Position numbers and translations under genes: made by a program. From an uncultured Planctomycetia bacterium (GTDB lineage: Bacteria; Omnitrophota; Gorgyraeia; 1-14-0-20-64-10): a stretch of DNA of 64,000 nt. The notes beneath the pieces are model-generated. The model had not been told where the DNA came from. It ran no database searches and worked only from the letters and a program-made list of their open reading frames with translations. The stretch is from contig CAZQXN010000008.1 in the NCBI GenBank assembly GCA_964597545.1, forward strand, positions 733 through 64,732, written 5' to 3'. This document shows, one piece after another, positions 16,570-64,000 of the stretch; within the stretch, counting starts at the first letter, position 1; the number at the start of each line of letters is the position of its first letter.

Positions 16570-16798
16570 GCGTCCGCTCCCATTTCCTGGTTTTGGGACT
16601 CTCAGGGAAGCATTTCAGGGAGGGCATCGGTGCGAAGGCGACTTGCCGGAGGCCGCCTACGGGAAAGCCATCAAGTACTGTTACGAGGATATGGAGGGCA
16701 AGCTCTGGATTACCAACGAGGAATACGCCAGCCAGGTGAATTTCTGTCCTTACTGCGGGCACAAGACAACAGTAGTGGTGGGACGTCACGATCTATGA
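16562..16798 (+). CDS. small Cys/His-rich protein (zinc-ribbon-like), unknown function
   Basis: 78 aa; HRCEGD, KYCYED, NFCPYCGHK; start overlaps the HEPN stop; stop overlaps the next start (ATGA). Confidence 0.45.
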   Translation: MDKRPLPFPGFGTLREAFQGGHRCEGDLPEAAYGKAIKYCYEDMEGKLWITNEEYASQVNFCPYCGHKTTVVVGRHDL

Positions 16799-17652
16799 TC
16801 ATCTTGCAACCGAATCAGTCAGAACAAAAAGCAAAACCCAAGACCCCCAAATCTTATATTGTTTTGGGTTGCATCGGTGGGGTCGTTTTAATGAATACAG
16901 TTGCGGGATTGGCTAGAGCCATTGGATTTTCCATTAAAGCACCTCCCCTGTCGCCTGATCAGGCATCGGCTTTTTCATCGTTTGTCGGAATTCTAGCAGC
17001 GGTTTCATTTATAGGTGGGTATTACTTGATTGCAAAAGTCGTCAAGCGGAGTCTGGCGATGGGGGTTATCGTACTGGCAGGGATTGGTTTTGTTGGGTTG
17101 TTATCGTATGCTGCGCAAGCAGGGACAAAGAGCCAAGTAGTCGGCTCTGGCCAAGCCGTTGCTATTACCCCATCGTTTGTAGAGCTTGATTCGAACATTG
17201 TTGATACAGATGAGTTTTCAATCTCGTTTCCTGCCAATCCCAGGAGAGCAGTTGTTACTCAAAAGGCTGGAGGCGAGAGCCTTCGTGTAGAAACCTATCA
17301 AGCAGGAGATGGCGTAGGTATGTACGCATTCTCCTACGGGCGGTTAAGCAGTGTTTTGAAAGGGGGTTCGCAGCAGAAAGAGTTTGTAAGGGATCTCTTC
17401 AAGGGTTTGCTCTCAACAGCAAAAAATGCTCAGACTCATACAGAGCATCAATCCGACCGGATGCCTTTCGACCTGTCGTATCTTTATACGAGTGACTTTC
17501 ATGGCGATACCTTAGCTCACATGGGAATGCTATTTCTTGTGGATGACAAAGCGTACATAAAGATTACCCTTGTCTATCCAGCGAGTCGTGTAGACGAAGC
17601 TGCGGAGAAATACACCCGGTTTTTAAACACACTCCAATTGAAGAAAAGGTGA
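16795..17652 (+). CDS. 3-TM membrane protein with ~170-aa soluble C-terminal domain, unknown function (low GC)
   Basis: ATG 16795 (the ORF-track 16630 start is an out-of-context N-terminal extension); TM helices YIVLGCIGGVVLMNTVAGLA, FSSFVGILAAVSFIGGYYLIA, LAMGVIVLAGIGFVGLL; GC visibly lower than the flanks. Confidence 0.6.
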   Translation: MIILQPNQSEQKAKPKTPKSYIVLGCIGGVVLMNTVAGLARAIGFSIKAPPLSPDQASAFSSFVGILAAVSFIGGYYLIAKVVKRSLAMGVIVLAGIGFVGLLSYAAQAGTKSQVVGSGQAVAITPSFVELDSNIVDTDEFSISFPANPRRAVVTQKAGGESLRVETYQAGDGVGMYAFSYGRLSSVLKGGSQQKEFVRDLFKGLLSTAKNAQTHTEHQSDRMPFDLSYLYTSDFHGDTLAHMGMLFLVDDKAYIKITLVYPASRVDEAAEKYTRFLNTLQLKKR

Positions 17653-17921
17653 TGCGACAATTAAAACTGGAAGACATGGTGCCGGGTATGAAATTGGGTT
17701 CCAACGAGAGTCTTGCTACCCTGATAGAGGATTTGACGCGGCCGCCCGGCGTCGGAAACGATTTTGAAATTCGAAGATCTAGGGCGAAGGCCGTCTTTGA
17801 ATACATGCACTCGCTTCAGGTGGCGAAAAATAGCGAGCAGGTACGGTATGCGACATTGGTCATAGCCGGGGCGACTGTGTTCAACGCTATCGTTCTTACC
17901 ATCACACTATTTTTTCTGTGA
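17649..17921 (+). CDS. small tail-anchored protein, unknown function (low GC)
   Basis: 90 aa; C-terminal TM ATLVIAGATVFNAIVLTITLFFL; ATGA overlap with the upstream gene. Confidence 0.5.
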   Translation: MMRQLKLEDMVPGMKLGSNESLATLIEDLTRPPGVGNDFEIRRSRAKAVFEYMHSLQVAKNSEQVRYATLVIAGATVFNAIVLTITLFFL

Positions 17922-18040
17922 TTCTTGGTTCAGTTTTTGGCAGGGGGGATAGGAATTGCTACGGTGGTCTATATTGGCCTACGGTGTTATCCGTTATAGT
18001 TTTTGTCGGGAAATCGGTTTTCGTAAGTTCTTATACCACA

Positions 18041-18117
18041 CGGGGCGTAGCGTAGTTTGGCAGCGCGCTTGCATGGGGTGCAAGAGGTCGGCAGTTCGAA
18101 TCTGCCCGCCCCGACCA
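18041..18117 (+). tRNA. tRNA-Pro (anticodon GGG)
   Basis: acceptor stem CGGGGCG/CGCCCCG, anticodon stem CTTGC/GCAAG with loop ATGGGGT, T-loop GGTTCGAATCC-like (CAGTTCGAATCTG), 3' ACCA encoded. Confidence 0.85.
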
Positions 18118-58165: not shown

Positions 58166-58239
58166 GCGCCTGTAGCTCAGATGGATAGAGCACCTCACTC
58201 CTAAGGAGGGTGTCGGCCGTTCGAATCGGCCCAGGCGCG
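58166..58239 (+). tRNA. tRNA-Arg (anticodon CCT), CCA not encoded
   Basis: acceptor GCGCCTG/CAGGCGC, D-arm GCTCAGATGGATAGAGC, anticodon loop CTCCTAA (one A.G mismatch at the base of the anticodon stem), T-arm GGCCGTTCGAATCGGCC. Confidence 0.75.
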
Positions 58240-59679
58240 CTCTTCTTTATCAGGGTCTGTTTGGGACACCAAATCGAAGGGCGAACTGTAGGAAAACAAA
58301 AGGGTTCGGTCATTCAAACGGAAGTTCGAGCCGGCTGATTTCAAAAATTTCCTTAGGGCGGCGGGATTTTCTTGGCCAGCGACGGAACCTGCCTCCGCGC
58401 AAACAGTTAAGAACTCCTTAGCTGGTTCGAGCCACCCACCACCCGTTCTTTCGATCTCGCCAAGCGCCTCCTTCAAATCCTGCTTCTCGCCGAGCAGCTT
58501 GGCCTTCTTACGCTGGTACTCCTCCGGGTCGATCTGGCGGGCGATGTAAAGATCCAGCAGGCGCTCCATCTTCTCGTCGCACGCCTTAAGTTGATCGGCA
58601 ATCCGGCGAGATCGAGAGATTGAGGCGCTGCTGGCTTCCTTGGCCTGGGATTCCCACTGCGCGAGGATTTTCTCCTTTGTTTCAACGCTGATCGCTACCC
58701 TCAAGATGGCCCACTTCACCTGGTCCAGTAGCGCCTCCTCTCGAAGAAACTTCTGAGAACAGGGGCCCTTCTTGCGGGTACAGCGGTAGTAAACCAAGCG
58801 CTTCTTCTGGATCTCGGCGGTGATCATAGAGCCGCACTCAGCGCAGCGCATGAAGCCGACAAAGGTGAACTTCACCCTGCCGCGCTTGTGGGATCTTCGC
58901 TGCTGCGCCAGCACCTGCTGCACCCGATCGAACAGTTTCTTCGAGATAAGAGGGGGGTGGCTGCCTTCATACAGCTCACCCTTGAACAGCATGGTGCCGT
59001 AATAAAAGGGATTCCTTAAGGTGTCTGCGACCGCGCTCTTGTGGACAGGCTTGCCCGTTCTGCCGGTCAGGCCCCAGCGCAGCGCCTCGCGTAAGATCTC
59101 CTGAAGGGAGTATTCGCCTGAGGCGTATACCTCAAAAATCTTCCTGACCAACACCGCCTTCTCCGGATCAGGCGCGACTGTATGGTTCTTGTAGTCGTGC
59201 ACATACCCCATGGGCGCTGCGCACGGCCACTCCCCGCGCCTCAACTTCGCCCGGAAGCCACGCCTGACGTTCTCGGCCAAATTATCCACGTAATACTTCG
59301 ACTGGCCGAAGGCGATGGATAGCATGAACTTGCCCTGGGCGGTGTTGTCGTAGCGATAGGTAGGGAACTTAAGAGCCAGCAGTTTGCCCGTATCCAGCAA
59401 GTAGATGATCCGCCCGCCGTCCACAGAATTACGGGCAAGCCTGTCTGGATGCCATGCCAGCACTCCTTGGGCTTTTCCTTGCTCGATCTGCTCCATCATC
59501 AAATTGAAGACCGGCCGGCCCGGCTCCTTGGCTGTCTTGGCCTCCACAAACTCCTCGACTACAGCCAACCCTTCATGCCGGGCGAGCTGCTTCAGCTCGC
59601 ACAACTGCGACTCGAGCGACAAAACCTGCCGGTCTTCCTCGTCCGTGGATTTCCTGGCGTAAAGAAAGTAAGCTGGCAT
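58201..59679 (-). CDS. large serine recombinase (resolvase/invertase N-terminal domain, recombinase domain, zinc ribbon)
   Basis: MPAYFLYARKSTDEEDRQVLSLESQ (catalytic Ser region), ...WHPDRLARN...; recombinase domain; CAECGS...YYRC zinc ribbon; coiled-coil C-terminus; start placed at ATG 59679 (the ORF-track extends it to 59943); 3' end overlaps tRNA-Arg on the opposite strand. Confidence 0.85.
   Translation of the reverse strand: MPAYFLYARKSTDEEDRQVLSLESQLCELKQLARHEGLAVVEEFVEAKTAKEPGRPVFNLMMEQIEQGKAQGVLAWHPDRLARNSVDGGRIIYLLDTGKLLALKFPTYRYDNTAQGKFMLSIAFGQSKYYVDNLAENVRRGFRAKLRRGEWPCAAPMGYVHDYKNHTVAPDPEKAVLVRKIFEVYASGEYSLQEILREALRWGLTGRTGKPVHKSAVADTLRNPFYYGTMLFKGELYEGSHPPLISKKLFDRVQQVLAQQRRSHKRGRVKFTFVGFMRCAECGSMITAEIQKKRLVYYRCTRKKGPCSQKFLREEALLDQVKWAILRVAISVETKEKILAQWESQAKEASSASISRSRRIADQLKACDEKMERLLDLYIARQIDPEEYQRKKAKLLGEKQDLKEALGEIERTGGGWLEPAKEFLTVCAEAGSVAGQENPAALRKFLKSAGSNFRLNDRTLLFSYSSPFDLVSQTDPDKEERAWADSNGRHPP
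58237..58388. repeat. inverted repeat, left copy (152 bp), overlapping the tRNA-Arg 3' end; encodes the recombinase C-terminus
   Basis: reverse complement of 59720-59906, identical except for a 35-bp indel; read by eye. Confidence 0.8.
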
Positions 59680-59694
59680 GGCATCCCTCCACTG

Positions 59695-59724
59695 TGTCAT
59701 CCCCGCGGAAGCGGGGATCGTTCC
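59695..59724. repeat. half copy of palindromic repeat family B (minus orientation) abutting IR-R
   Basis: reverse complement gaacgatccccgcttccgcggggatgacaca matches the right half of the 18.1/38.2 kb element. Confidence 0.6.
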
Positions 59725-59906
59725 GTCGCTGGCCGAGGATCCAAAGGAGACTGACCGCCGGCAGGCGGGAAGAAAATCCCGCCGCCCTAAGGAAATTTTT
59801 GAAATCAGCCGGCTCGAACTTCCGTTTGAATGACCGAACCCTTTTGTTTTCCTACAGTTCGCCCTTCGATTTGGTGTCCCAAACAGACCCTGATAAAGAA
59901 GAGCGC
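59720..59906. repeat. inverted repeat, right copy (187 bp, contains a 35-bp insertion relative to IR-L)
   Basis: reverse complement equals 58237-58388 apart from the insertion gaggatccaaaggagactgaccgccggcaggcggg. Confidence 0.8.
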
Positions 59907-60466
59907 CGGCTGGCCGACGATGTTCGAACTTATTTTGAAACACTGGCCCCAGGAAAGCAAGACCCGCTTCTGGGCCCCAACAGTCTATAACCCCGCGCCC
60001 TCCTGCCCGCCCCGCCTATTTACCCCTGCCAGGGGCGGGGTCGGGCGCGATGAGGAGTGGCCGCTTGGCCGCGGCCACAGGCCGCCTTAGGCCAGGCGGC
60101 CTCTAACCGCTCCGCCCGACAGCCCTGTACGGGCTGCCGCTGCCTGTCCCTCCGGCGCCCTTGTTTTACCTGTTTCCTTGGGTTCTTACCGCCCCCCGTC
60201 CCTTCAAGGTCGGCGCCGTTAGGCCGTGCCCCGGACGCGCTTGCCGCCGCCCAAGCGCGATCGGGGCACCGCTTTGTTCTCCTGCCACCCACCTTTTCTC
60301 GGGGAGAAAAGGTGGAGTGATGATAAACAGACCCCCTGCTATTGAGCTAGCAACAAGACAAAAAGAAGCGTAGCAAGTATAATGGTATTGAGCAATCACC
60401 CATCGGTTCTCAGTCGAAGCATAGCAGCGCACATCGCCAATATCAGGGAGCAGGACGAAGCAACCA

Positions 60467-61708
60467 ATGTCAGCGACAGATACAACAACATTAAGGAACG
60501 GAAGAACTCAAGCTGCCATATACGCTACCTCTGATTGTCCGACGGATTCCAAGGAGGTAACTCACAGGACACGCCTTGAAGAGCTCAACCTCAACTGGAG
60601 CGAGAAAGATCTTCCAGAGAAGGAGCGCACTAAACATGTTCATAGGTTGCACCCTTATCTCGGGAAGTTTATCCCACAACTTGTGGAGACTTTTCTAAGA
60701 AAGTATTTTTCGCCAGGCCAAACAGTACTTGATCCCTTTGTGGGATCGGGGACAACGGTTGTGCAAGCTAATGAGTTAGGCATAAACTCCATCGGGTACG
60801 ATGTATCTGCATTCAATAGCCTGCTGTGTCGAGCCAAGACAGCAAGATATGATCCCAATAAAGTGCAACAAGAGGTACTCGACATTCTTGAGAAAGTGCG
60901 GGTGGAAACACAAGAAGATGGACAAGAGAATTTATGGAGAAATCCAAGAAACTCAAAGATTCCCAAAACAGACAATGCGTATCTCAAGCAGTGGTTTGCT
61001 CCTCAATCGCTTCGAGAGCTTTTGACATATCGGTCTTTTATTGATCAGGGGGATTATAGATACAAGGATTTGCTCAAGATCATACTTTCCCGCTCTGCTC
61101 GGTCAGCTCGACTTACTACCCATTTTGATTTGGATTTCCCTAGACAACCACAAACGGAGTCCTACTGGTGTTATAAACATTCCAGAGAATGTACCCCCAC
61201 CACACAGGCTTTTGCATTTCTAAGACGCTATAGCTTAGATTCTCTAGAGCGGATCAGAGACTTTGCTGTTCTTCGCACGAACTCCCATGTTTCCATTCGG
61301 CACGCAGATAGTCGGAGGGCTCACTTCCCGCCCATTGATGGTGTAGTTACCAGTCCTCCGTATGTGGGGTTGATCGATTATCACGAGCAACATGCTTATG
61401 CGTACCATCTATTGGGACTAAAAGACAAACGTAGCATGGAGATTGGGCCCGCGGCGAATGGGTCGAGCCAGAAGGCGAAAGATCAGTATCAGAAAGATAT
61501 TGGCGAAGTATTCAGCCATGCCGCCAAAGCTATGCCTTCCGGTGGGCGCATGATTGTTGTGGCAGGCGATCGAGCTAACCTATACGGAGAAATAGCCAAA
61601 CTAGCAAGCGTAGAGATTGAGACCGTTGTTCGGCGACATGTGAACCGGCGAACAGGTCGCCGAGCCAACGAGTTTTACGAATCGGTTTTCATCTGGCGAA
61701 AGAGATGA
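60467..61708 (+). CDS. DNA methyltransferase (N6-adenine/N4-cytosine class, SPPY motif)
   Basis: HPYLGKFIPQLVETFLRKYFSPGQTVLDPFVGSGTT (motif X/I, AdoMet binding) and TSPPYVGLIDY (motif IV); low GC; TATAAT box about 85 bp upstream. Confidence 0.75.
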   Translation: MSATDTTTLRNGRTQAAIYATSDCPTDSKEVTHRTRLEELNLNWSEKDLPEKERTKHVHRLHPYLGKFIPQLVETFLRKYFSPGQTVLDPFVGSGTTVVQANELGINSIGYDVSAFNSLLCRAKTARYDPNKVQQEVLDILEKVRVETQEDGQENLWRNPRNSKIPKTDNAYLKQWFAPQSLRELLTYRSFIDQGDYRYKDLLKIILSRSARSARLTTHFDLDFPRQPQTESYWCYKHSRECTPTTQAFAFLRRYSLDSLERIRDFAVLRTNSHVSIRHADSRRAHFPPIDGVVTSPPYVGLIDYHEQHAYAYHLLGLKDKRSMEIGPAANGSSQKAKDQYQKDIGEVFSHAAKAMPSGGRMIVVAGDRANLYGEIAKLASVEIETVVRRHVNRRTGRRANEFYESVFIWRKR

Positions 61709-63081
61709 AAAGAGCCAAGCCTCAAGAGATAAAATCCGCCATCCAAAGCGTTATCAAGATGTTGATGGATGGAGTTATGGATAAGGTGCTGAACAAAGAT
61801 CCCTTTATTGAAGAGGAGCACCACGCGAAGAAACCGCTCTACGCAGCTCTGGTGCCTGATGAGGTTTTTAAGGGGTCGCATTTTGAAAGAAGGTTCGTAA
61901 CTCCATTTGGACGCGCTTGGGAGGCTCTGGCAATCGTAGTGGCAGAAAAGGCGCTGGGTATTGGGGCTGAGAATCATAGCATCGAGGGCACAGTCAAGTC
62001 AGAACGCTTGAGGCGGATCAGCCAGGTGCTTAACCGGTTAGAACACCCAGAAAGAGGCAGGGAAAGATTCCGGCCTCATTGGACAGAGGAACTCAAATTT
62101 GTTTTAGCGGGTGGCGGCAAGAACATACCTGTAAAGGTCATTTGTGATGTTTATGCTGAGGATAGGACGAACAACAAGAAGTATGCTTTTGAGCTAAAAG
62201 CTCCTCTCCCCAACAGCGACCAGACGAAAGTGAGCAAGGAGAAAATCCTCAAGCTCTATTGCATGGAGCCCAAACAAGTGGATGGAGCGTACTATGCGCT
62301 TCCCTATAACCCATACGGAAAGAAAGAGAACTACAGTTGGAGTTTTCCTGCTCGTTGGTTTGATATGCAGCGCGATGAGGTTGTTCTTATAGGAAACGAG
62401 TTTTGGGACAAAATTGGCGGACCTGGTACATACCAGTCATTTATAGATGCCATCAATGAGATAGGGCCTGAGTATAAGGAGAGAATTTACCGAGAATTCC
62501 TGGGTATTGAGCCACCAGCCGAGAGTGTACAAGCAGGCGTTATTTCATCCGCCGAAGAAATAGGTGCTACAGCCGCTCAAGCGCCGGAACCGGAAATAAA
62601 GATTGTTTCCAGGAAGGAAGCCGAACCTTTCGTGACTCACCTACCTGTTTATTCGCTCGAAGTTGCTGCTGGGGGCTATGGTAGAGCCAAGGAAACTGAA
62701 GAGAGGGGGTGGGTAAGGGTAAATGGCCGGAAGCTGGCCGAGGGTATGTTTGTGGCTCAAGTCATCGGGCATTCAATGGAACCCAAAATTCCCGATAGAA
62801 GTTACTGTCTCTTCAGGTGGCACAAAGGGGGTACAAGGCAAGGACAGATTATCCTAGCTCGGCATAGCGGTTTGGTTGATTCTGAGACTGGAGGTAAATT
62901 TACTGTCAAGAGGTATGAGAGCGAAAAGGTTCATAACTCGGACGACACTTGGCATCATAGCAGGATCGTTCTGAAACCGATTAATCCGTCGTATCGCCCC
63001 ATCGAAGTTACTCCTTCCGAATCCGAGGAAGTGAGCATCATTGCTGAGTTTGTTGGTCTTCTGTATGAAGGGAATGTTTAG
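61705..63081 (+). CDS. fusion protein: PD-(D/E)xK restriction-endonuclease-like N-terminal domain plus LexA-type S24 autopeptidase C-terminal domain
   Basis: N-domain ICDVYAED...YAFELK (D...ExK) and paralogous to the next gene; C-domain has the LexA cleavage-site-like VAAGGY, catalytic Ser in GHSMEP, GQIILAR, catalytic Lys in FTVKRY, and tail IVLKPINPSYRPIEV; ATGA overlap with the methyltransferase. Confidence 0.7.
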   Translation: MKRAKPQEIKSAIQSVIKMLMDGVMDKVLNKDPFIEEEHHAKKPLYAALVPDEVFKGSHFERRFVTPFGRAWEALAIVVAEKALGIGAENHSIEGTVKSERLRRISQVLNRLEHPERGRERFRPHWTEELKFVLAGGGKNIPVKVICDVYAEDRTNNKKYAFELKAPLPNSDQTKVSKEKILKLYCMEPKQVDGAYYALPYNPYGKKENYSWSFPARWFDMQRDEVVLIGNEFWDKIGGPGTYQSFIDAINEIGPEYKERIYREFLGIEPPAESVQAGVISSAEEIGATAAQAPEPEIKIVSRKEAEPFVTHLPVYSLEVAAGGYGRAKETEERGWVRVNGRKLAEGMFVAQVIGHSMEPKIPDRSYCLFRWHKGGTRQGQIILARHSGLVDSETGGKFTVKRYESEKVHNSDDTWHHSRIVLKPINPSYRPIEVTPSESEEVSIIAEFVGLLYEGNV

Positions 63082-63122
63082 CTGATGGATGGTCGACTGA
63101 CTAACGCTAAAGAGGTGTTTGT

Positions 63123-63791
63123 TTGAGAAGAGCTTTCATGAAGATGACAAGCGAAAAACGCTCGAGAATCGAAAAAATCATCGAGCGATTCGTTAGCAAT
63201 GTCCACAGGCTATCGGAACTTAACGCGGATAAGATCGTCGTTAACCCTTTCCTGGCGGCTGCGTTGGGACTTAGAGAAAAACCGGAGATACTCGACTTCT
63301 TTCTTACGCAAAGGATGCAACGAGGGATCGTAACTTCGTTTGGTACTACGATACAAAAAATTGCGAAGACGCTCGATTCCGAAGCGAAAGAGGAAGATGT
63401 AGACCTCGTGTTCATAAAACGCAGCAAGAAATATTATGTCCAACTCAAAAGTGGCCCCGAGGGATTTACTCGGCCCGCGCTTAGGAAAACAAAAGCGACG
63501 TTTCGTAAGCTGAAGAGGCGTGATCCGTCTTGCGTTACGGTTATAGGTTTCTCATACGGCACCAAAGAACAGCTTTCTCCTATATGGGGACGTGAAGCGT
63601 ACAAGAGTGCCGATAGAGTATTGGTTGGAAAAAAGTTCTGGGATTTCTTTGCGGGCAAAGGATTTTATGATGAGCTAATAAAGGTCTTTCAAATGAGTAG
63701 ACCAGCAACTGGTAGGCGGAGGCAATCCAAGAGATCTACATTCAGGCAAATCCACAGACAGCTATATCGACGTTTACTACCATTGTTCTAA
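63123..63791 (+). CDS. PD-(D/E)xK restriction-endonuclease-like protein, paralog of the N-domain of the preceding gene
   Basis: VTSFGTTIQKIAKTL ~ VTPFGRAWEALAIVV; EDVDLVFIKRSKKYYVQLK ~ ICDVYAEDRTNNKKYAFELK; KKFWDFFAGKGFYDELIKVF ~ NEFWDKIGGPGTYQSFIDAI; TTG start with AGAGGTG RBS. Confidence 0.6.
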   Translation: MRRAFMKMTSEKRSRIEKIIERFVSNVHRLSELNADKIVVNPFLAAALGLREKPEILDFFLTQRMQRGIVTSFGTTIQKIAKTLDSEAKEEDVDLVFIKRSKKYYVQLKSGPEGFTRPALRKTKATFRKLKRRDPSCVTVIGFSYGTKEQLSPIWGREAYKSADRVLVGKKFWDFFAGKGFYDELIKVFQMSRPATGRRRQSKRSTFRQIHRQLYRRLLPLF

Positions 63792-63834
63792 GGAATGAAG
63801 AAGGCGGTCCGCAATGAGTCGTCTCCGGTTCCAC

Positions 63835-64000
63835 GGGAGCTCTATATGAAACAGGATAATTCGCGCGGCGAAACAGGACACAGCATCCTCCCAGTTCTTA
63901 TTACCTTGTCGGTTTTGAGCATCATCATTGCGCCGTTTTGCATGCTTATCAAATACCAAGATGTGGCCGGCGAAATCGCTTTGCTTTCCAAAAGCATGAT
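63835..64000 (+). CDS. membrane protein, N-terminal fragment (continues beyond the window)
   Basis: MKQDNSRGETGHSILPVLITLSVLSIIIAPFCMLIKYQDVAGEIALLSKSM, open to the window edge. Confidence 0.35.

Follow-up and report, generated by a model that had tools for sequence, protein, structure and literature searches.

Type II restriction-modification (R-M) systems of the TdeIII family (PF09520; prototype TDE0911 of Treponema denticola) consist of a methyltransferase (MTase) gene followed, with overlapping stop and start codons, by the gene for a restriction endonuclease (REase) of about 277 aa, and the prototype site of this family, from its Pfam/REBASE description, is taken here to be GGNCC. In the PmeII/AvaII/EcoO109I group, PmeII recognizes GGWCC, AvaII G^GWCC and EcoO109I RG^GNCCY, and both EcoO109I and AvaII are homodimers. 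LexA, lambda CI and UmuD share an S24 fold with a Ser-Lys dyad and an Ala-Gly bond about 35 residues before the serine, and cleavage of LexA exposes latent ClpX motifs (PMC10584840). Degradation of HsdR by ClpXP is a known route of restriction alleviation (PMC4231737; PMC12707154); in EcoKI, it is the stalled translocating complex that ClpX recognizes in trans. Here we describe a cassette in which elements of these systems meet. It occupies the last 3.6 kb of a 64,000-nt stretch (the window) from an uncultured Planctomycetia bacterium (assembly GCA_964597545.1, contig CAZQXN010000008.1, positions 733 to 64,732) and comprises three co-oriented genes that encode an MTase and two nucleases, here referred to as gene B and gene C.

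The cassette is an otherwise ordinary acquired type II R-M locus with two additions: a predicted self-cleaving module of the SOS type on the first REase, which we consider its most interesting feature, and a second, solitary REase. As in orthodox type IIP systems, the MTase and REase are encoded by adjacent, separate genes and the MTase carries motif I and SPPY, and as in TdeIII systems the MTase gene precedes and overlaps the REase gene. TdeIII homologs stop at about 277 aa, whereas gene B continues for another 181 aa with a linker and an S24 autoprotease domain. Positions of all features are collected in the table below. An earlier interpretation made from the letters of the window (the sequence-only reading) had described three tightly linked genes with an ATGA overlap and a 41-bp gap; the open reading frame (ORF) coordinates agree, and the 41-bp gap between genes B and C holds for a TTG start of gene C, becoming 56 bp for the ATG start, which is favored by the source annotation and by homologs. 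No terminator-like hairpin was predicted between the cassette genes.

Features of the cassette and its surroundings (window coordinates)
Feature	Position	Strand	Details
tRNA-Arg(CCT)	58166-58240	+	context
Large serine recombinase	58201-59943	-	Resolvase, Recombinase and Zn-ribbon domains; real start probably near 59670
Promoter-like site, AAGACA-17-TATAAT	60355-60383	+	10/12 matches; upstream of the MTase gene; candidate operon promoter
MTase gene	60467-61708	+	413 aa (ORF list)
Gene B	61705-63081	+	458 aa; start overlaps MTase stop as ATGA, 61705-61708 (4 nt)
TdeIII-family REase domain	61705-62535	+	gene B residues 1-277
Catalytic residue E73	61921-61923	+	alignment A1
Catalytic residue D148	62146-62148	+	alignment A1
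Catalytic residue E163	62191-62193	+	alignment A1
Catalytic residue K165	62197-62199	+	alignment A1
Ala/Glu/Pro low-complexity linker	62536-62619	+	gene B residues ~278-305; stand-alone homologs end just before
S24 (LexA/CI/UmuD-type) module	62620-63081	+	gene B residues ~306-458
Predicted cleavage site LPVYSLEVAA/GG (A322/G323)	62668-62673	+	clade alignment
Ser357 in GHSMEP	62773-62775	+	clade alignment
Lys402 in TVKRY	62908-62910	+	clade alignment
Gene C	63138-63791	+	217 aa from ATG 63138; alternative TTG 63123 gives 222 aa
K74 in FGTTIQ-K-IA (gene C)	63357-63359	+	~67/72 family members have Glu there or one residue earlier
Motif D87/D89; Q102-L-K104 (gene C)	63441-63449 (Q-L-K)	+	motif census
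ORF past gene C	63795-64000, runs off window	+	begins 4 nt after gene C stop

The cassette is compositionally foreign and was horizontally acquired. As the sequence-only reading had noted, its GC content is lower than that of the host: values of 0.45-0.50, with 0.45-0.52 at third codon positions (GC3), compare with 0.56-0.59 and 0.67-0.73 in nearby host genes (PPDK, a sigma factor and APRT) and a GC of 0.576 over window positions 1-58000. The GC and GC3 are 0.471 and 0.447 for the MTase gene, 0.470 and 0.519 for the REase-coding part of gene B, 0.496 and 0.461 for its S24-coding part, and 0.451 and 0.477 for gene C. The S24-coding part thus shares the foreign composition of the remaining cassette, and the fused gene was therefore acquired as one unit.

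Residues 10-254 of gene B match PF09520 (RE_TdeIII) from its first to its last position (1-242 of 242; E 5.5e-73, 246 bits, cutoff 27.2). The nuclease part shares 71-79% identity with hundreds of stand-alone enzymes that are about 277 aa long, and the 120 closest homologs (70-79%) are all of this length and cover only about 59% of the query. In alignment A1, residues E73, D148, E163 and K165 are invariant across TdeIII homologs and the domain extends in full to the GIEPPxxxxGxL at the C-terminus of the homologs. By this homology, gene B residues 1-277 are a complete TdeIII-family type IIP REase domain, in a protein that at 458 aa is atypical for a single-domain family. Neither gene B nor gene C gave a useful match when searched by sequence against PDB chains, and in the phage and plasmid collections only distant stand-alone TdeIII enzymes were found.

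TdeIII homologs in other genomes occur as plain M-R pairs, with the REase directly after its own N6_N4 MTase (loci L001 and L003). The stand-alone enzyme most similar to gene B (79% identity; L003, 3040-7295) lies in a prophage lysogeny module in the order CI-like HTH-S24 repressor (HTH, helix-turn-helix), MTase, REase and large serine integrase, close to genes for Phage_rep_O and RusA; a study of Thermus phages describes a similar slot for prophage-borne defense genes (10.1101/2024.08.14.607894). This TdeIII pair sits beside a CI-like repressor, whereas the cassette in the window has no adjacent controller or repressor gene.

The C-terminal extension of gene B, in which the sequence-only reading had recognized an S24 domain, matches PF00717 over residues 314-449 (E 1.3e-11). 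A structural model of the tail (AlphaFold2, applied to the gene B tail and to gene C) reached a pLDDT of 83 and a pTM of 0.75, with a disordered linker (pLDDT <50 at tail residues 7-23). Its best Foldseek matches were the lambda CI fragment containing the cleavage site (2ho0, 2hnf; E 1e-5), LexA of several species (3k2z; RecA-bound 8trg) and UmuD' (1umu), with probability 1.00 and target-normalized TM scores of 0.65-0.72 for the CI, LexA and UmuD' matches. Similarity of the S24 profile to solved LexA structures is marginal by sequence (E 0.16), which points to a divergent S24 branch. According to model and alignment, the gene B tail has the LexA/CI/UmuD fold with an intact predicted cleavage site and Ser-Lys dyad (G-x-S-M, V-K-R), the Ala-Gly bond lying about 35 residues before the serine, and the S24 domain is likewise C-terminal to the effector part. 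The effector of LexA and CI is an HTH domain, whereas that of gene B is a restriction endonuclease; gene B gave no match to any HTH family, and with a TdeIII nuclease as its N-terminal part it is not a LexA/CI-type repressor. Furthermore, the clade to which the tail belongs has its own signature, and its dependence on RecA would follow only by analogy. An origin of the tail from a prophage CI repressor such as that of L003 was considered and rejected: identity to the latter is 28% over 103 aa, against 52-61% to S24 domains linked to restriction enzymes. We consider it probable that the tail is a self-cleavage-competent module under selection.

A profile of the S24 clade was searched against 1.84 billion representative proteins, and 3192 proteins were found at E<1e-3 (749 at E<1e-30), many of them 500-1969 aa long with the match at the very end. 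The gene B tail searched alone retrieved its own clade at 40-58% identity. At least 579 loci in GTDB species genomes encode a relative, with hosts that are mostly uncultured Acidobacteriota, Elusimicrobia, Planctomycetota, Binatia, Nitrospirota and Myxococcota. Among the 80 best GTDB loci, used here for counts of architecture, the S24 domain ends intact in-frame ORFs; its carriers are full HsdR proteins (28 loci, ~1180-1220 aa), type III Res-like proteins (18 loci, ~1106 aa), DEAD+MZB proteins (8 loci, ~1950 aa), type ISP/IIG enzymes, SLFN-g3 helicases and HIT+SNF2 proteins (4 loci each), and Eco57I-like enzymes (3 loci), with S24-only or HTH-S24 proteins in a few. A Pfam scan of 52 long representatives likewise recovered Type_ISP_C (10), SLFN-g3 helicase (7), ResIII (7), MZB (5) and Eco57I (4), together with SWI2_SNF2, N6_Mtase, Methylase_S, T1RH-like_C, HSDR_N, RE_endonuc, PLDc_2, RE_LlaJI and MmeI_Mtase. 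In the loci checked, an hsdS or Mod-like MTase gene stands directly upstream of the S24-tailed gene, as part of operons with hsdM and hsdS (L005), hsdS (L009) or a Mod-like MTase (L012). The two closest S24 domains (60-61% identity) both come from a single groundwater Elusimicrobia metagenome-assembled genome, where one of the two forms the end of an HsdR (L009). One 511-aa member (P0404) is an HsdS specificity subunit (Methylase_S) with an S24-clade tail; the module is thus not confined to nuclease subunits.

Three elements are conserved in the clade alignment: an A-A-G, the Ser in G-x-S-M-E-P some 35 residues after it, and the Lys in T-V-K-R-Y; the clade has a signature of hLPhYxLKAAAGxFG and TVKRYxSEK. 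Over the 331 members picked out by a GxSMxP motif, the residues around the predicted scissile bond, marked by the slash before G, are L-(K/R/E)-(A 77%/V 13%)-A 94%-A 91%/G 83%-x-F-G; the catalytic Lys is present in 99% and the S24 domain is at the extreme C-terminus in 96%. The possibility that the fusions to large restriction enzymes are frameshift artefacts was rejected, as most of the 80 loci have intact in-frame ORFs of 800-2000 aa. In three loci, a large restriction-enzyme ORF and an S24 ORF overlap by 14-340 nt in different frames (L004, 5171-8738; L005, 5360-8909; L088, 5007-7477). The first two, with HsdR or type ISP ORFs, are long-read metagenome assemblies and the third is a replicon of Halomonas sp. 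PA16-9; these cases could be sequencing indels, pseudogenes or programmed frameshifts.

In the literature we found no account of a restriction enzyme with an S24 or LexA-like domain, although prior mention elsewhere is possible, and a 2025 review of R-M biology of 270,000 characters mentions neither 'S24' nor 'LexA' (PMC12707154). The S24-autoprotease clade may be a widespread, so far undescribed layer of control in cis on restriction subunits of types I, III, ISP and IIG and, in the window, IIP, tying the lifetime or activity of the nuclease to a RecA/SOS signal, with Chi-dependent loading of RecA as the sign that self DNA was cut; it would then be a hard-wired switch for restriction alleviation or against autoimmunity. 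We put this generalization forward tentatively, as one that stands short of an even chance.

Gene C belongs to a second nuclease family. It matches PF14511 (RE_EcoO109I; E 3.6e-15, 56.7 bits, cutoff 22.5) and, more weakly, PF09520, and its homologs (n=75) are 212-225 aa long, some of them named 'PmeII family type II restriction endonuclease'. The family profile matches the EcoO109I structure 1wtd (E 9.6e-12), and a model of gene C (pLDDT 90.5) matches EcoO109I bound to DNA (1wte; E 1.9e-7, TMq 0.72). The proposal that the two downstream proteins share a fold was borne out, as both are PD-(D/E)XK nucleases of one superfamily that match PF09520/PF14511; the ~80-aa insertion attributed to the longer of them turned out to be the difference in size between the families (277 vs 217 aa). 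The glutamine in the motif of gene C, which had been read as possibly marking a regulatory, specificity or degenerate partner, does not indicate decay: Q-L-K is invariant in 75/75 family members, and the D...Q-x-K arrangement corresponds to the active site of AvaII (D147/Q161/K163), where the carbonyl of the Gln ligates metal (PMC7337904). In EcoO109I, a Ser occupies the position of this Gln. A lysine, K74, replaces the usual helix Glu of the family; that Glu is probably the counterpart of AvaII E123, which holds an optional second metal (PMC7337904). By homology gene C is a PmeII/EcoO109I-family type II REase that lacks an MTase of its own directly upstream, unlike its homologs in L006 and L007, which follow their own N6_N4 MTase with an overlapping start; in the window, gene B fills that position. 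In L006 (3123-5676), genes with SMODS and ThiF domains come after the M-R pair of the gene C homolog, in a CBASS-like neighborhood, so R-M pairs of the gene C family also sit in defense islands.

The MTase was correctly recognized by the sequence-only reading as an SPPY methyltransferase. It is an amino-MTase that matches PF01555 (E 4.1e-17, 63.3 bits, cutoff 26.7) and the PADLOC model MTase_II PDLC03249 (E 6.8e-93), and motif I (DPFVGSGTT, residues ~89-97) precedes a middle region of ~165 residues, the putative target recognition domain (TRD), and motif IV (SPPY, 296-299); by this motif order it is an alpha-class enzyme. Its identity is 69% (L003) and 65% (L001) to the partners of TdeIII-like REases and 50-51% (L006, L007) to the partners of PmeII-like REases, and the MTases of both types of pair are homologous over their full length. 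In the putative TRD, identity is 46-50% between the two MTase classes and 52-58% within a class, values close enough to suggest that both may recognize the same or nested sequences. As a GGNCC-type site contains no invariant adenine, an amino-MTase for such a site must be an N4-cytosine enzyme, and the SPPY motif fits an N4-cytosine MTase; the enzyme of the cassette is thus probably an N4-cytosine (m4C) MTase for a GGNCC-type site.

A single GGNCC-type MTase plausibly covers the enzymes of both gene B and gene C, as suggested by the fact that the partner MTases are homologous and the prototype specificities nested; a depletion of GGNCC in the host part of the window is a third argument. Over positions 1-58000, 307 GGNCC pentamers were observed against 385 expected under a maximal-order Markov model (ratio 0.80), a deficit of about 4 standard deviations by our own Poisson estimate, and all four pentamers are under-represented (0.71-0.86), while control sites gave 0.97 (GATC), 1.04 (GANTC) and 1.01 (GGCC). 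This mild depletion, over a basis of 58 kb, is compatible with long-term exposure to GGNCC-type restriction.

Taken together, these results are best explained by an acquired type II operon in which one alpha-class m4C MTase of GGNCC type would shield the host from two independent, homodimeric PD-(D/E)XK REases, the sites of gene C being a subset of, or overlapping, the methylated GGNCC-type sites. A RecA filament on single-stranded DNA or an equivalent damage signal, arising for example when the enzyme has cut unprotected host DNA, would induce the S24 domain of gene B to cleave itself at A322/G323. The REase fragment would then end in LEVAA, which resembles the latent ClpX signal on the N-terminal fragment of LexA, and would be degraded. 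Restriction would thus be off while the chromosome is repaired and re-methylated, a built-in form of restriction alleviation or brake on autoimmunity. Activated RecA could report that the cell's own DNA was cut because double-strand breaks in Chi-containing host DNA load RecA, and of the possible positions of the S24 domain, only the C-terminal one would leave the enzyme with a degron at its C-terminus. The proposed outcome is that known for EcoKI HsdR, where proteolysis removes the restriction subunit if the host DNA is damaged or lacks modification, and the predicted VAA or AAA ends of cleaved S24 enzymes resemble C-terminal ClpX signals (PMC10584840); the analogy is functional only, as gene B would use an autoprotease in cis and EcoKI is recognized in trans. 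The identities of the components are held with high confidence. For the explanation as a whole, including the shared MTase and the damage-triggered shut-off, we consider the chances evenly balanced, and inactivation or alleviation as the outcome of S24 cleavage, taken by itself, is plausible at somewhat less than an even chance.

Several points weigh against this explanation. We found no literature linking the S24 clade to RecA, ClpXP or restriction control, and some S24 proteins cleave independently of RecA, for example IrvR (PMC7101444). The HsdS-S24 fusion P0404 fits simple alleviation poorly, as degradation of HsdS would also remove methylation. PF00717 was present on none of the 120 closest TdeIII homologs (0/120), leaving the protein of the window as the only one to have it; none of the other S24-clade members inspected has a TdeIII domain, and the clade searches and scans turned up no other classical type IIP REase with such a tail. 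The TdeIII+S24 fusion is thus a singleton and in gene B could be a recent fusion that selection has yet to test. Gene C may be attenuated or inactive, as it lacks the usual helix Glu (K74), so that the presence of two active REases is unproven. The recognition sequences are carried over, by analogy, from the prototypes of the families, and because the window ends 209 nt past gene C an additional MTase may lie farther downstream.

The strongest rival holds that S24 cleavage activates the nuclease: the tail would be auto-inhibitory or sequestering and would be removed by activated RecA, or by a damage or infection signal, as in the conversion of UmuD to UmuD', and the enzymes would then be effectors triggered by SOS or infection. 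The Ser-Lys dyad and Ala-Gly site fit activation equally well, UmuD' is among the structural matches of the tail model, and the clade also occurs on proteins outside classical R-M (SLFN-g3 helicases, DEAD+MZB and HIT+SNF2 proteins), where triggered activation is a common logic. Most carriers, however, are restriction subunits in operons with a cognate MTase, which already provides discrimination of self from non-self and makes licensing unnecessary. In addition, the C-terminal position (96%) and the Ala-Ala at P2-P1 yield a tail like those of ssrA and LexA, as expected for destruction, and we regard activation as unlikely.

Slightly less likely still, in our estimate, is a structural or neutral role, with the S24 domain serving as a dimerization handle or being a recent accidental fusion without regulatory function. 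The singleton status of the fusion among TdeIII enzymes would agree with this, as would the dimerization of LexA and CI C-terminal domains, an established property, given that type IIP REases act as dimers. Against it, A322/G323, S357 and K402 are all intact, the linker and the residues around the cleavage site conform to the consensus of the clade, and the GC3 of the S24 part (0.461) matches that of the cassette, so that the fused gene was acquired as a unit. Moreover, the same arrangement, with the catalytic residues conserved, is seen in seven or more unrelated families of enzymes, which argues for selection on cleavage itself.

The remaining rivals concern the second nuclease. Two separate R-M systems could stand side by side, with the MTase of gene C beyond the end of the window; tandem R-M systems are common in defense islands, and the source contig extends to 66,820 bp. 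In the homolog loci L006 and L007, however, the MTase of this family sits immediately upstream and overlaps the REase, the place taken by gene B here, and the ORF after gene C opens with a hydrophobic helix, unlike an MTase, so that such an arrangement is improbable. Less probable still is a single heteromeric nuclease served by one MTase, in which genes B and C would be its two subunits, as the sequence-only reading had proposed, or gene C a dead regulatory or specificity partner: the genes are neighbors in one orientation, without a predicted terminator in between, their products share a fold superfamily and K74 may impair gene C, but the two are not recent paralogs (only 27% identity over 107 aa, E 4e-5), their families, TdeIII and PmeII/EcoO109I, lie apart, each beside an MTase of its own, in all the homolog loci examined and never together in those inspected (L001, L003, L006, L007), as a two-subunit REase of the BbvCI kind would need them to be, Q-x-K is family-wide and catalytic in AvaII, and EcoO109I and AvaII are homodimers.

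As for the surroundings, the promoter-like site upstream of the MTase gene is a weak consensus match only; 5 such sites were found against 3.8 expected in shuffled sequence. The ORF past gene C may be a fourth cassette gene; a hydrophobic helix is predicted at its N-terminus (ILPVLITLSVLSIIIAPFCMLI), and it does not resemble the gene that follows a gene C homolog. The suggestion that the cassette belongs to a horizontally acquired, tRNA-linked island remains plausible, but the limits of such an island are unproven: no second copy or direct repeat of the tRNA-Arg 3' end was present within the window, and the serine recombinase is native-like in composition (GC 0.571, GC3 0.729), unlike the cassette. 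That this recombinase traveled with the R-M pair, as in L003, was considered but is not supported, given its host-like composition and an identity of 20% to the L003 recombinase.

The recombinase gene is itself flanked by an inverted repeat of 148 nt with 97% complementarity (58226-58373 and 59770-59917). The left arm contains the last 15 nt of the tRNA-Arg and the 3' end of the recombinase gene, the right arm is its inverted copy, and inversion of the 1396-nt segment between the arms would leave the C-terminal tail of the recombinase unchanged; either a self-inverting element or a palindrome from assembly could account for the structure. A second patch of low GC was observed at 16600-17950 (0.473 in 17001-18000), directly upstream of a tRNA-Pro (18041-18117). 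It contains two ORFs, one of 340 aa with hydrophobic stretches and one of 90 aa, and may be another small insertion.

To our knowledge, the mechanism by which hosts are protected from their own restriction enzymes after damage, repair synthesis or loss of methylation is known only for a few type I enzymes (ClpXP), and the same protection is hardly understood for type II and type III enzymes. If the explanation proposed here is correct, an S24 damage sensor fused to the nuclease would be a simple and portable answer to self-restriction, and one that could be engineered as a 'damage-off' switch for nucleases. A single MTase shared by two REases of nested specificity would, in addition, illustrate how solitary REase genes persist. 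As a small, soluble type IIP enzyme, gene B is suited to a direct test of S24 control, and because the module is present in at least 579 species-level genomes from many phyla, a result obtained with it would generalize.

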